NCBI GenBank assembly: GCA_964495075.1
Contig: CAZBUJ010000009.1
Span: 36,086 to 100,085, forward strand
Source of the DNA: an uncultured Phycisphaeraceae bacterium
GTDB lineage: Bacteria; Planctomycetota; Phycisphaerae; UBA1845
Length of the DNA stretch: 64,000 nucleotides
Direction of reading: 5' to 3'
In this document: piece by piece, positions 38,157 to 43,841 of the stretch
Numbering within the stretch: the first letter of the stretch is position 1
Layout of the letters: each line of letters opens with the position of its first letter
Notes under the pieces: model-generated
Database searches by the model: none
What the model saw: only the letters and a program-made list of their open reading frames with translations
Told to the model about the DNA's origin: nothing
Made by a program: the position numbers and the translations under genes

Positions 38157-39656
38157 CTACTCTGCGGTTTCCTCTTCGAACTCCACCTTGCGGCTATTGA
38201 GTTCGGTAACCGAGCCGGTGAGCTGGTTGACCGCGGCCACCACCGTGTGGTTCTTGATCTTGCGTTTGTGAATGCGGATGGGTCCCTTCATTTCCTTGAC
38301 GAACGACGTGACGCGGTCGTCGATGCGGACGGTCACGCCCTGGCAGACCTTGGAACTGACCAGCACGTAGGGCCCGAAGTCCTCCGCCGTCTCGTGTTCG
38401 CCCGACGGTACGTAGACGGCCGCCATGCCGTCCTTGACGCGTTGCTCGACCTTGTTGATCTCGGCCTCGATGGAGTCCGCCTGGAACATGAGCTCGGTGG
38501 CCCGTTCCCGCTGATGCTGGGCGAGGTGCTTGGCCTGCGCCATGAGCGGGGAAACGGTTTCCCGGATCCGCTCGATCGCCTTACGCCGCCGCGCGTTCTC
38601 GATCTCCGCCACCTTGGCCTCGCGGAGCAGGTCTTCCCGCACCCCCACCGCCACGTCGGTCGGCACGCCGGCATCGCTGCCCACGACCTTGGCCTCAATG
38701 GCCACCCGGGCGTACACCTTGCCGCCAATCACCGCCCCGTTGGGGATCAACAGCCGGGATTCCGTATTGACACGGCTGTTGAGCACTTCCTTGCCGATCG
38801 TGATGTCGCCCTCCGCGTCGACTTGGGCTTCCGCGCAGAACTTGGCGGCGATCGTACCGCCGGACCGGACAAAACCCTTGTCCCGGTTGAGGATGCCACC
38901 CCGCACTTCGATATGCTCCGCAGCGTCCACTTCCGCCGCTTCGATTGCCCCGCCCACCGTGAGCCACCGGTCCGTCCGGACCTGGAACAGGTCCTGGATG
39001 TTGCCCCGCACGTTGACCGGCGTGGGCGAGTTGATGTGGCCGACGGAGAAATCCACGTTCTCCGTGATCTCAAGCACGGTGACGACGGTGATGCGTCCGT
39101 CCGCGACGTTGACCCGACCGGCCTCCTGGGCGACGACGGTGGTGCCGTCCTCCGCCAGGACGACGTTTTCGTTCAGTTCGATTTCGCTGGGCGCCTTTCG
39201 GATGGGGATTTCGTTGCCGTGGACGTCTATGCCGGGCGTGGCCGGGACGGCGGGCGTGATGTGGCCGATGGTGTCCCCCGCGTTCACCATCACGAACTTG
39301 GAGACGTCGTAGTGGCTGAGACGCCTTTCGTCTTCGTCCTCGTTGATGGCCTCCTCGCGAGGGGCGATGGGTTCATACCACTCAAAGGTAGCATCCTTGC
39401 CCTCATCGAGTGGGCGGCCTTTGGCGATCAGTACGGGTTCATACGCGTGCCTTCCAGCGGTGATTCGCGCGATGTACTCCTGGATCCGGGAGGTGACGGC
39501 GTCGTCAACCATGATCCTGGCCTGCTCGAGGGCGACCACTACGTCGCTGGTGGTGACGTGTTTGAAGTCGGCCTCGTCGCGCAGGCGGATCGTCGCCGTG
39601 AGGTGGTCTTCCGCTACCACGACGCGAAATGGTGTACTGACCTTTGTCGTACTCAT
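38157..39656 (-). CDS. FapA/DUF342-family protein
   Basis: IAKGRP..GKDA, PGIDVHG, NVDFSVGHI, beta-helix-like repeats, coiled coil; downstream of cheY. Confidence 0.88.
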   Translation of the reverse strand: MSTTKVSTPFRVVVAEDHLTATIRLRDEADFKHVTTSDVVVALEQARIMVDDAVTSRIQEYIARITAGRHAYEPVLIAKGRPLDEGKDATFEWYEPIAPREEAINEDEDERRLSHYDVSKFVMVNAGDTIGHITPAVPATPGIDVHGNEIPIRKAPSEIELNENVVLAEDGTTVVAQEAGRVNVADGRITVVTVLEITENVDFSVGHINSPTPVNVRGNIQDLFQVRTDRWLTVGGAIEAAEVDAAEHIEVRGGILNRDKGFVRSGGTIAAKFCAEAQVDAEGDITIGKEVLNSRVNTESRLLIPNGAVIGGKVYARVAIEAKVVGSDAGVPTDVAVGVREDLLREAKVAEIENARRRKAIERIRETVSPLMAQAKHLAQHQRERATELMFQADSIEAEINKVEQRVKDGMAAVYVPSGEHETAEDFGPYVLVSSKVCQGVTVRIDDRVTSFVKEMKGPIRIHKRKIKNHTVVAAVNQLTGSVTELNSRKVEFEEETAE

Positions 39657-39686
39657 GCCGAGCCCCTTCGGCATCGGCCCGGTGGA

Positions 39687-40061
39687 TTATGTTTGGGCGG
39701 ACACTTTGGCCATCGTCTGGTTGATCTTCTCCGACAGCGTTTCGCCGGTGAACGGCTTGACCACGTAGTTGTTGACGCCCGCCTTGATGGCCTCGACCAC
39801 TCTTGACTTCTCCGCCTCGGTCGTGCACATGATGATTGGCGTGGTCTTGTCCGTTTCGCGGACCTTGCGGACCATCGTGATGCCGTCCATATTGGGCATG
39901 TTCCAGTCGACGAGCATGAGTTCGGGCTTCTCGGCCGCGATGCGAGACAGGGCCTCCACGCCGTCGCCGGCCTCGATCACGTCGGTGTAGCCGATCTCCG
40001 CGAGCACGTTCTTCTGGATGTTGCGAATGGTGCGGGAGTCGTCGACAAGTAAGATCTTCAT
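39687..40061 (-). CDS. cheY: CheY-like single-domain response regulator
   Basis: LLVDDS, VDWNMPNMDG, MCTTE, YVVKPF; ATGA overlap with cheX. Confidence 0.92.
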   Translation of the reverse strand: MKILLVDDSRTIRNIQKNVLAEIGYTDVIEAGDGVEALSRIAAEKPELMLVDWNMPNMDGITMVRKVRETDKTTPIIMCTTEAEKSRVVEAIKAGVNNYVVKPFTGETLSEKINQTMAKVSAQT

Positions 40062-40564
40062 GATGAGGCTCCTGCGCTCGCGGCGGCCCGTTCCGATACC
40101 CCTGGTCTGTCCGTGGTCATTCCGATTTCGACGTACACGGAGCCGAATTCCGTTTCGCACGGTATCACGACGCGCGGGACCGACCGCGAGGTCGAGACAA
40201 CATGCTCCTTGCCGATGATTACATTCGGAAGCGAGATACTGACGCTCATCCCGCGGAATTCCTTCTTGGCGTTGCCGGCCACCATGTTGGCCAGTTCGCC
40301 AATGGCGTCCGCGAAGTCGGGGTGATGCTGATCGATCGGCACGCCCGCGAACTTCGACGCGGCTTCTATCGCCACTCGTTCCGGAAAGCTCAGGACCACG
40401 CTGCCCGCCGCGTCACCCGAGAAGCCGATGACGCCCGAGACGTCAGCCGAGGCACTCGGATCGTGCTTCACGAACGGCTTGCCGACCTGCACCTTCGTCT
40501 GCACCATGGTTTCGAAGACGCGTTTGATCGCCAGAACAAAGGGGTTGATATACTGGACGTCCAT
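40058..40564 (-). CDS. cheX: CheX chemotaxis phosphatase
   Basis: YINPF, DVSGVIG, DAIGELANMVAG (E-x2-N). Confidence 0.95.
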   Translation of the reverse strand: MDVQYINPFVLAIKRVFETMVQTKVQVGKPFVKHDPSASADVSGVIGFSGDAAGSVVLSFPERVAIEAASKFAGVPIDQHHPDFADAIGELANMVAGNAKKEFRGMSVSISLPNVIIGKEHVVSTSRSVPRVVIPCETEFGSVYVEIGMTTDRPGVSERAAASAGASS

Positions 40565-40664: not shown

Positions 40665-41002
40665 GCTGCCCTGTACGGAGGACGCCTCGGCGATGCACCG
40701 CGGTCGGCTGGAAGAGCCGCCCATGACTTATCGGAACCGGGCCGGCCGGAACACGGTGCTTCACGCCGGATCGCAACGCCGCCCCGGACGACCCGGCGGC
40801 GCGACGCCGCGCGGGAAGCCGATCGGTGGGCCTCGCTGCCCCGCCAATCGGTCCACCGGACGGTGCGGCGCGGCTCCGGGGCAACCCGTCGAATTCCGCG
40901 TCAGAACGCTCCAACGAGTTCAGTTTCCCTTGCCCTGCCAAGGGCGATTGCCGGAAACAGGCTCCAAACGGCCGAAAGGACCGCCAAGTCCGCATTTCTT
41001 CC

Positions 41003-41031
41003 TTGCGACGCGAATGGGGCGCAGCTAGAAT
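41003..41031 (+). promoter_or_regulatory. Putative sigma-70 promoter of the histone gene
   Basis: TTGCGA-N17-TAGAAT. Confidence 0.55.
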
Positions 41032-41104
41032 CCTGCCCGAATCGAGGGACTCGAAAGCTCGGAAGTGCGTCACGGATTTGTCAACGCAAAAGGAGTGTCG
41101 TTCG

Positions 41105-41326
41105 ATGGCGAAGAAGAAAAAGGCGAAGAAGGCCAAAGCGTCCCGATCGAGGAAGGACGTGCTCGTGGTGGCCAGCAAGGTCAAGGCCTACATGCACAGC
41201 AAGAAGATGAATACGTCGGCCGATGCCATCGCCAGCCTTTCGGAGCAGGTGTATTCCATGCTCGACGCGGCGGCCGAAAGGACCAAGGCGAACGGGCGGA
41301 AGACCGTCAAGCCCCAGGACATCTGA
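41105..41326 (+). CDS. Bacterial histone-fold protein (Bd0055-like) with Lys-rich N-terminal tail
   Basis: VLVVASKVK, MNTSADAI and C-terminal ANGRKTVKPQDI (RKTVxxxD histone L2 motif); AAGGAG RBS; 73 aa. Confidence 0.9.
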   Translation: MAKKKKAKKAKASRSRKDVLVVASKVKAYMHSKKMNTSADAIASLSEQVYSMLDAAAERTKANGRKTVKPQDI

Positions 41327-41381: not shown

Positions 41382-41415
41382 AGGCAGGTGACCCGCCCGG
41401 TCACCTGCCTCCTTT
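41382..41415 (+). terminator. Intrinsic terminator-like hairpin between convergent genes; target of the IIC intron
   Basis: Perfect 12-bp stem AGGCAGGTGACC / GGTCACCTGCCT, 5-nt loop, short T run. Confidence 0.75.
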
Positions 41416-41417
41416 GT

Positions 41418-42331
41418 GTGTGCCGAGCATGTTTGGCAACTCGGGGGTGCGAGTCCCCCGTCCAACCTGATGGAGGTGAAGGACAAGCGGGTGCTCAGGC
41501 TCATCCGGGCGTTCTTGAACGCCGGGGGTGATGGAGAACGGGCTGGTCAGTCCGACCGACGAGGGCGCGCCGCAAGGCGGCCCCTTGTCGCCGTTACTCT
41601 CGAACCTGGTGTTGGACGAGTTGGACCGAGAGCTGGAGAAGCGAGGTCATCGGTTCGCGCGCTACGCGGACGACGGCAACATTTATGTCCGCAGCGAGCG
41701 GGCCGGCCAGCGGGTGATGGCCAGCGTGACGCAGTTCATCACACGCCGGCTCAAGCTCAAGGTCAACGAGACCAAGAGCGCGGTGGCCCGTCCCTGGGAC
41801 CGCAAGTTCCTGGGATTCAGCTTCACCAGCGGCCGGGAGCCCAAACGGCGGATCGCGCCGAAGGCCCGCCAGCGGTTCAAGGCGCGAGTTCGGGAGCTGA
41901 CGCGTCGGACGCGAGGAATCAGCCTGCAGGAGATGGTCAACCAACTGGCCGACTACCTGCGGGGCTGGCGAAGCTACTTTGGCTCTTGTCAGACGCCCTC
42001 GGTGCTCCGGCATCTGGACTCGTGGGTTCGGCGGCGACTCCGCTGTGTCCAGTGGAAGCAGTGGAAGCGTGGCAAGCGACGGTTCGCGGAACTGCGTCGT
42101 CTCGGGGTGGGTAAGAACCTGGCGGCTCAGACCGCCGGGAGCCCCCACGGCCCCTGGCGGATCAGCCGCAGCCCCGCCTTGTCCTTCGCCATGCCGGACG
42201 CCTTCTTCGTAGCACTGGGACTACCCCTGCTCGCCGCTCGTTGACAGCTCAACCCGCTCGAACTGCCGTGTACGGACCCGTACGCACGGTGGTGTGACAG
42301 GGACAGCCCGTGAGGGCCTACCTATGTCGAT
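41418..42331 (+). mobile_element. Group IIC intron, internally deleted
   Basis: 5' end GTGTGCCGAGCATG..GGGTGCGAGTCCC; DV GAACTGCCGTGTACGGACCCGTACGCACGGTGGTG; DVI ending CTATGTCGAT; located just after a stem-loop. Confidence 0.9.
41476..42244 (+). pseudogene. ltrA: Truncated, frameshifted group II intron RT/maturase
   Basis: DKRVLRLIRAFLNAG, frameshift in a G run near 41525, then PQGGPLSP, RYADD, FLGFSF and maturase domain; N-terminal RT subdomains missing. Confidence 0.88.
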
Positions 42332-42944: not shown

Positions 42945-43841
42945 TCATTCGGGTGAGCGACCGGGATTGGACGACGGCTGGGGGACCGCGCCCGTCCACC
43001 AGAAGGTCTGGGCGTGTGCGAATGAATAGTGCGGCTTTTGCAGTTCGAGGCACAGCGGGCACTCGCCGCCGGCGCAGTCCGGGTAAAAGCTCTCGATGGG
43101 CAGGCGCATCATGAGATCGGTCCGCACGCGACGCACATTGCCCCCCATGGTCACCGTGTTGATGCCGCCAAAATGGCGGGCCGTCAGCCAGGGGACCGAC
43201 GCGGACGGCGAGCCCGCGTCGAAGCTGTCATCCCACGGGAGCCGACCCAGCGACCGATGGGTCAGCCAGGCTTCCGCCGGATTCGTGCTCACGCCCGTCA
43301 CCACGTCCGGTCCGACGTCGGCCAGCAGAAGTGTGTCGAGGGGACGCTTCGGCTGATAGCGATCCATGTAGGCGAGGTAGCCGTCCGGACTCGACTGAAT
43401 GAAGTCACTCAGTCCGTAACTGCTGTCGACGATGGGCTCACCTAACGCGTTGAGCGTGGCCGGGTGCAGATCGTCCGGACACCGCAGCAGATGTGGATCA
43501 CCCAGGTATTTCGGAGTCAGCTTGGCGAACCAACTATCCGCCGGATCCAATGAAGACCGCGATGGACTCAACGTCGAAATCGGAATCCATCCGTCGTTGT
43601 CGATCCGGTAGGTATGTAGCGCCTGGTAAACTTCCTTCAGGTTGTGCATACAAACGGCGTTCGAGGCTTGACGCATCGCCCGGGCAAGAGAGGGGACCAG
43701 GATGGCCACAAGAAGGGAGATGATCAACATCACCATCAACAATTCAAGGAGGGTAAACCCTCTCCGTCCCGACTTGGGCAGACGGAATATACAACCCCGC
43801 GCGCTGCTGGTTCGACCACGCATGGAACCTGTTCCCACCAT
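42945..43841 (-). CDS. Prepilin-type N-terminal cleavage protein (planctomycete DUF1559-like)
   Basis: RRGFTLLELLMV..ILVPSL..C.HNL; RCPDD; RHFGGIN (H-X9-DG-like); start uncertain. Confidence 0.88.
   Translation of the reverse strand: MVGTGSMRGRTSSARGCIFRLPKSGRRGFTLLELLMVMLIISLLVAILVPSLARAMRQASNAVCMHNLKEVYQALHTYRIDNDGWIPISTLSPSRSSLDPADSWFAKLTPKYLGDPHLLRCPDDLHPATLNALGEPIVDSSYGLSDFIQSSPDGYLAYMDRYQPKRPLDTLLLADVGPDVVTGVSTNPAEAWLTHRSLGRLPWDDSFDAGSPSASVPWLTARHFGGINTVTMGGNVRRVRTDLMMRLPIESFYPDCAGGECPLCLELQKPHYSFAHAQTFWWTGAVPQPSSNPGRSPE

Follow-up and report, generated by a model that had tools for sequence, protein, structure and literature searches.

The 64,000-nucleotide stretch of DNA that was analysed, here called the window, comes from an uncultured Phycisphaeraceae bacterium and encodes a 73-amino-acid protein that we consider likely to be a singlet alpha3-truncated face-to-face (FtF) histone of the HLp class, acting as a DNA-wrapping tetramer with a non-specific electrostatic tail. 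It is a typical member of the published FtF class and not a new type of histone. The lysine-rich tail ahead of the histone fold is very probably part of the translated protein, judging from the start sites of related loci, and this tail keeps its composition while its sequence changes in a nearly neutral way.

The histone gene is present in one copy in the source genome (6.1 Mb, 94.4% complete), and its features are listed in Table 1. The consensus scan found one sigma-70-like site upstream of the gene, as compared with a mean of 0.1 in 50 shuffles, and the promoter blocks CTTGC and TAGAATCC are kept at the same distance in all six upstream regions that were aligned (L001, L004-L007 and L009; L003 is absent from this comparison). 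Hairpin arms comparable to those of the putative terminator, GGCAGGTG...CACCTGCC, are found 3' of the histone gene in L004 and L005. A sequence-only reading of this DNA had described a monocistronic gene of 73 amino acids with a promoter, a ribosome-binding site and a terminator, hidden within a longer open reading frame. This description agrees with our results: a sigma-70-like site, an AAGGAG site and a hairpin were all located, a monocistronic gene is supported, and the six-frame ORF list contains an enclosing frame of 166 amino acids that begins with GTG (40826-41326). We rejected this longer ORF as a true gene. The conserved promoter lies inside it and, being conserved at a fixed distance, places the transcript start, expected a few bases after 41031, within the ORF, which rules it out; additionally, its upstream peptide is not conserved, and stop codons in relatives close the frame at or just before the methionine of the tail.

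Table 1. Features of the histone locus, with positions counted from the first letter of the window.
Feature	Position	Strand	Details
Histone gene	41105..41326	+	73 codons + TGA; ATG at 41105 and TGA at 41324-41326 give a 73-aa protein (ORF reading of the window)
Shine-Dalgarno site AAGGAG	41090..41095	+	9 nt 5' of the ATG
Sigma-70-like promoter TTGCGA-17 nt-TAGAAT	41003..41031	+	Consensus scan; within the spurious 166-aa ORF
Intrinsic-terminator-like hairpin	41382..41410, T-rich run up to 41420	+	12 pairs, 8 of them G-C; consensus scan
Lys-rich N-terminal tail, codons 1-17	41105..41155	+	Composition; disorder in the AF2 model
Predicted alpha3-truncated histone fold, codons 18-73	41156..41323	+	AF2 model, Foldseek, phmmer

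Contigs of relatives from two RNA-Seq runs cover positions 41085-41238 and 41113-41293 at 80% likeness, with strand, starts and level unreadable. This cover takes in the ribosome-binding site and the codons of the tail, and its loose ends are other Lys-rich codings. RNA-labelled runs make up 4-7% of the sampled words and are represented by contigs only, and DNA can occur in RNA libraries; because of this, and because the contigs carry neither starts nor strand nor level, we do not count their cover as evidence of expression. The absence of such cover upstream of 41071 carries no meaning.

An ATG at the start of the tail, with a GGAG-type site 6-11 nt upstream, is present in all 13 related loci (L001 and L003-L014), which come from the same taxonomic order, and in every one of them it opens M-A-[K/R/A]-K. 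Two loci of a more distant histone type (L015 and L016, 42% identity) lie outside this start-site motif and are not among the 13. The open frame begins at the tail methionine itself in L012 and one codon earlier in L010, which excludes a longer N-terminus in those relatives. With neither the ATG nor the Shine-Dalgarno site missing from any of the 13 loci, translation very probably includes the tail, and the earlier claim that the tail belongs to the protein, which a translation start further downstream would have contradicted, is supported by these start sites. A tail-less product could conceivably arise from a GTG at codon 19, which follows a purine-rich stretch; a GTG at this position is not conserved, being found in 5 of the 13 loci.

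The AF2 model of the protein, built with 150 homologues, has a mean pLDDT of 83.7 and contains two helices (residues 23-32 and 39-62), with a short turn at the C-terminal end. Pfam PF00808 (CBFD_NFYB_HMF) is reached marginally, with 22.0 bits against a gathering cut-off of 21.4 (E 2e-4, residues 43-73 only), while the NCBIfam archaea_histone profile (17.1 bits, cut-off 50) and Pfam PF09123 for pseudodimeric histones (DUF1931, 14.8 bits, cut-off 21.8) stay below their thresholds, and the protein, with its 73 amino acids, consists of a single fold. The top Foldseek match of the model is HLp (9qt0_A, E 1.5e-5, target-normalised TM 0.91, 52% identity over 56 aligned columns, rmsd 1.1 A), followed by HBb (47-48% identity over 56-57 structure-aligned columns) and then by archaeal HTkC (29-30%), and all leading matches are bacterial or archaeal alpha3-truncated histones. 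The histone fold proposed earlier therefore stands, as predicted by structure modelling and by the profile search alike.

In order to place the protein among the known classes, we compared it with the two bacterial histones that have been solved. HLp of Leptospira perolatii is reported to form stable tetramers, each wrapping about 60 bp of DNA, with dimer-dimer contacts of R49, S52 and N53 against F63, T61 and R55; R49, N53 and R55 are described as conserved tetramer residues, and R55 pairs with D62 in the RD clamp (Hu et al. 2025, PMC12701072; PDB 9QT0, 9QT1 and 9QT2). In the phmmer alignment the equivalents of R49, N53, R55 and D62 are R59, N63, R65 and D72. R59 is invariant among 150 aligned homologues, N63, R65 and D72 are each conserved in at least 90% of them, and the full R-N-R-D set is present in 119 of the 119 close homologues that were scored. 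Other positions differ: S52, T61 and F63 of the HLp tetramer interface correspond to A62, Q71 and I73 here, and the DNA-contacting K21 corresponds to H31. The two proteins also have in common a singlet alpha3-truncated fold, A-S-K at the start of alpha1 and, going by the published description of HLp, the DNA-contact equivalents K27, T37 and T67. They differ at the N-terminus, where HLp is described as having only a short stretch whose first 6-7 residues are disordered; the N-terminal part of HLp that phmmer aligns is not Lys-rich, whereas our protein has 17 residues with a net charge of +10.

The sequence-only reading had likened the core to Bd0055 of Bdellovibrio bacteriovorus (HBb; PDB 8CMP, 8FVX and 9EZZ), which is reported to bind DNA as a dimer (PMC11317129, PMC12701072). 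That likeness is real. Bd0055 (8CMP, 8FVX) is found by phmmer in the PDB with an E-value of about 6e-7, its identity over the fold is 47-48%, and it has both the truncated fold and the RKT..D motif of loop 2 in common with our protein, although without an evident Lys-rich tail in its aligned part. It is not the best match, since HLp (9QT0, query residues 12-72) is found with an E-value of 5.4e-15, better by about eight orders of magnitude. A histone of the Bd0055 type, bending or coating DNA as a dimer, would also be expected to lack the residues discussed above: equivalents of R48 and N52 are missing from bacterial dimer histones as these are described in Schwab et al. 2024 (PMC11390915), and Bd0055 has S and D in the phmmer alignment where our protein has R59 and N63. 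In the HTkC preprint, loss of the equivalent arginine (R45A) is reported to give an HBb-like bending phenotype. Together with a four-copy model that closes through the R59/N63 region, these results make the dimer reading very improbable. Therefore, on the strength of its FtF residues and its greater nearness to HLp than to Bd0055, we file the protein as an FtF histone, and the earlier assignment to the Bd0055 type has to be given up. Of the features of the FtF class, it shows the truncated fold, the dimer-dimer residues, the RD clamp and a homotetramer predicted in silico.

This homotetramer received a complex-prediction score of 0.86, as compared with 0.00 for the best of three controls. The mark applied is attained by 20 of 30 proteins with a structure solved as one-chain pairs, and by 1 of 23 with a single-chain structure. 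The four-copy runs have at least 98% of their contacts in common, with a partner pLDDT of at least 81. The predicted dimer-dimer contact is made by residues 58-59, 62-63 and 69-72, which include the FtF positions, and uses the interface of HLp; the tail takes part in no interface. Because the HLp tetramer had already been solved, success of the four-copy model may only reflect likeness to it and is not independent proof, and both the predicted fold and the predicted tetramer may lean on that structure.

Residues 1-17 contain 8 Lys, 2 Arg and 2 Ser, a composition given earlier that our recount reproduces, and they contain no Asp or Glu; residues 1-13 are predicted to be disordered (pLDDT below 50 in the AF2 model). 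The G+C content is 66.8% for the window and 65% for the intergenic DNA upstream of the histone gene. Among the 100,678 stop-free 17-residue windows in six frames only 5 have at least 8 Lys, and all 5 overlap the histone tail, so that the composition of the tail is far beyond what chance would give in this DNA. The same kind of extension is widespread among homologues. A word-indexed search returned 187 homologues at E <=0.001, and 116 of the 120 that were listed have an extension of 10-25 residues ahead of helix 1. In 119 close homologues the tail has a median length of 16 amino acids (range 5 to 55) and is composed of 45% K, 10% R, 19% A, 8% S and 7% G, with D and E together at about 1%; its net charge is at least +4 in 117 of them, and 116 open with M-[APV]-[KRA]-[KR].

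An exhaustive search of representatives at 50% identity returned 416 relatives at E <=0.001. We scored 94 of these, all single-fold and of no more than 100 amino acids, taking a basic tail to be one of at least 8 amino acids with a net charge of +4 or more. Such a tail is present in 41 of 77 representatives with the R-N-R signature, as opposed to 3 of 17 without the full signature, and tail-less and acidic-tailed relatives are found as well. Some tails reach 42 residues, and some consist of AKKAP-type repeats (P0179). Alignment A1 holds 32 of the 94 eligible representatives and omits P0067, P0088 and P0090, whose starts are miscalled or truncated. The premise of the sequence-only reading, that histones of this class are essentially tail-less, is true of the two characterised proteins only and does not hold for the close homologues. 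According to Schwab et al. 2024 (PMC11390915), Planctomycetota are among the phyla with FtF histones, and bacterial FtF histones commonly have tails, most of them positively charged, a description that matches our gene exactly. With basic tails already in print as a common property, the protein is to be seen as a typical member of its class and not as a discovery. According to Hocher et al. 2023 (PMC10627809), most bacterial singlet histones are without long tails, and histone genes persist in Planctomycetota.

The survey of homologues also brought up proteins of other composition. Doublets, with two histone-fold stretches, account for 37 of the best 149 of the 416 representatives. Five proteins (P0162, P0186, P0229, P0231 and P0249) have a Cys-rich N-terminal domain that resembles the ZZ histones as described by Schwab et al. 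2024, and three others (P0123, P0145 and P0146) have hydrophobic, signal-like N-termini. The more distant histone-fold gene of L015 (G032:C265) and L016 (G038:C87) has open frames of 122-133 amino acids, and genome G038 carries both histone types.

Eight pairs of loci with tails of equal length, L003 not being among them, were compared for substitutions. The pN/pS of the tail is 0.62-0.99 in six of these pairs and 0.21 and 0.00 in the other two, as opposed to 0.15-0.34 for the core in the same eight pairs. Conservation within the tail is confined to the MAKKK opening, and composition and charge are kept. A sequence that drifts while its composition is maintained fits an electrostatic DNA-binding arm better than a modification code. 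At the same time, near-neutral evolution and a length that varies from 5 to 55 amino acids mean that a large part of the tail may be dispensable.

The distribution of the histone is patchy. It is found in 14 of 41 genomes of relatives, with 4 of 5 in the genus and 7 of 24 in the family, and among 401 genomes sampled across the phylum it occurs in 185, or in 123 of the 244 of high quality. These counts, like the others given here, are uncorrected for relatedness. The source genome also carries one HU gene (88.5 bits). Given its patchy distribution and the presence of HU, the histone is not an indispensable sole organiser of the nucleoid. Leptospira, the genus of HLp, is reported to be without HU (PMC12701072); with HU encoded here, the histone is probably one of several nucleoid proteins.

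The tail could be read in other ways than as a non-specific arm. One is that it serves as a regulated, eukaryote-like platform, whose Lys and Ser residues are acetylated, methylated or phosphorylated by dedicated enzymes and which switches the compaction of the nucleoid. The 8 Lys, 2 Arg and 2 Ser of a largely disordered segment would offer suitable sites, and acetylation control has been reported for the Lys-rich tails of other bacterial nucleoid proteins (HupS/CobB1, PMC11229371). A candidate enzyme is also at hand, as the source genome encodes one SET-domain protein (L017, G000:C16:21596-21847, 37.4 bits against a Pfam cut-off of 22.4, open frame of 280 amino acids). However, among the 401 phylum genomes sampled, 105 have SET genes, and these show no association with the histone: both are found in 45 genomes, where 48.4 are expected (odds ratio 0.84, p 0.49, uncorrected for relatedness), and we dropped the SET-domain link as support for a modifiable tail. 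Eukaryotic tails have conserved residues that are modified in a position-specific manner, whereas in this family composition alone is conserved; with no conserved positions beyond MAKKK, a tail pN/pS near neutrality in most pairs and a length that ranges from 5 to 55 amino acids, a position-specific code is unlikely. The characterization of the tail as eukaryote-like and modifiable thus finds no backing in conserved positions or in the company of SET genes, and we regard a regulated platform as unlikely. A related idea, that reversible acetylation or methylation of lysines on the four tails acts as a charge switch, tuning the hold of the tetramer and the bridging of DNA, appears to us quite unlikely.

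An alternative in which the tail does little by itself, as an "easy come, easy go" extension gained when an upstream start codon was recruited, is also unlikely in our view. Such an origin has been proposed for tails of prokaryotic nucleoid proteins in the review by Hocher and Warnecke 2024 (PMC10919886), where Lys-rich tails are said to arise easily in this way, those of some Leptospira histones included. A tail pN/pS near 1 in several pairs, the existence of tail-less and acidic-tailed representatives and the occurrence of a basic tail in only about half of those with the FtF signature would all agree with this, and Lys codons just after the ATG might also aid the start of translation. On the other hand, composition is tight in 119 homologues (K and R together 55%), a basic tail recurs in homologues across the phylum, and in a setting this rich in G+C drift should erode an AAG/AAA-rich tract and not create one. 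Considering these points, an electrostatic arm on an FtF tetramer remains the reading that we prefer.

The mechanism that we propose for tetramer formation, DNA wrapping and tail function is inferred from HLp and from the anatomy of the protein. Two chains would form the usual histone handshake dimer, and two dimers would close into a tetramer through the C-terminal end of alpha2, loop 2 and the alpha3 turn (R59, N63, R65 and residues 69-72). DNA would then run around the basic rim of the tetramer without sequence specificity, as in HLp, where wrapping of about 60 bp has been shown experimentally, and conserved A23-S24-K25, K27, T37 and T67 would provide the rim contacts. The disordered tail, with a net charge of about +10 per chain, would bring about +40 to each tetramer. 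As the model has it, the tail leaves the fold at the start of alpha1, beside the A23-S24-K25 motif for DNA contact. It most likely serves as a non-specific electrostatic arm, which would raise affinity, offset phosphate charge on the DNA that is wrapped or lies nearby and promote bridging or compaction, and it would thus be nearer to the Lys/Ala-rich extensions of linker histone H1 and of some HU proteins than to a position-specific modification platform.

Mycobacterial HupB, Streptomyces HupS, Deinococcus HU and linker histone H1 all combine a K/A/S/P-rich, low-complexity disordered arm with a small DNA-binding fold. The folds themselves (HU and winged helix, respectively) are unrelated to the histone fold. 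The AKKAP-type repeats of some homologues (P0179) are a further likeness to these extensions. Tailed histones of Asgard archaea and eukaryotic core histones are described as having a disordered basic N-terminal tail before the histone fold, as our protein does; unlike it, they are nucleosomal and have a full alpha3. In the literature that we searched, we found no experimental work on planctomycete histones or on the function of bacterial histone tails, and no biochemically characterised member with a MAKKK-type tail.

The genomic neighborhood suggests no functional link between the histone gene and the genes that flank it. Upstream, on the opposite strand and divergent from the histone gene, are FapA (N-terminal domain and beta-solenoid), a CheY-like receiver and a CheX phosphatase (38157-40564). 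In the ORF list, the CheX and receiver frames share about 100 bases, and therefore one of the two starts given there probably lies too far upstream. A 5'-truncated and frameshifted remnant of a group II intron (41416-42331) directly follows the histone terminator on the same strand. Its ORF at 41528-42244 contains only the end of RVT_1 (profile positions 113-204 of 205) together with a GIIM maturase domain, and the preceding fragment is in another reading frame; the match to domains V and VI of Intron_gpII at 42261-42331 has 35.6 bits, below the gathering score of 40 (E 1.1e-4). Further downstream, on the reverse strand (42945-43841), a protein of 298 amino acids carries an N-terminal prepilin-type methylation motif (N_methyl, E 1e-6).

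Bacterial histones have been characterised only recently, and neither of the two solved examples, HBb and HLp, has a long basic tail. The planctomycete branch with Lys-rich tails is a large one, with 187 homologues and a histone in 185 of 401 genomes of the phylum, and it is experimentally untouched in the literature searched. That such tails are common is already in print, and what this locus offers is a clean, well-delimited example, well suited to a first experiment that compares a bacterial histone with and without its tail. If a charge switch did operate here, these bacteria would have evolved, independently of eukaryotes, a way of controlling nucleoid compaction through histone tails. 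More generally, a comparison of the protein with and without its tail would show how a histone tail functions in the absence of the eukaryotic machinery.
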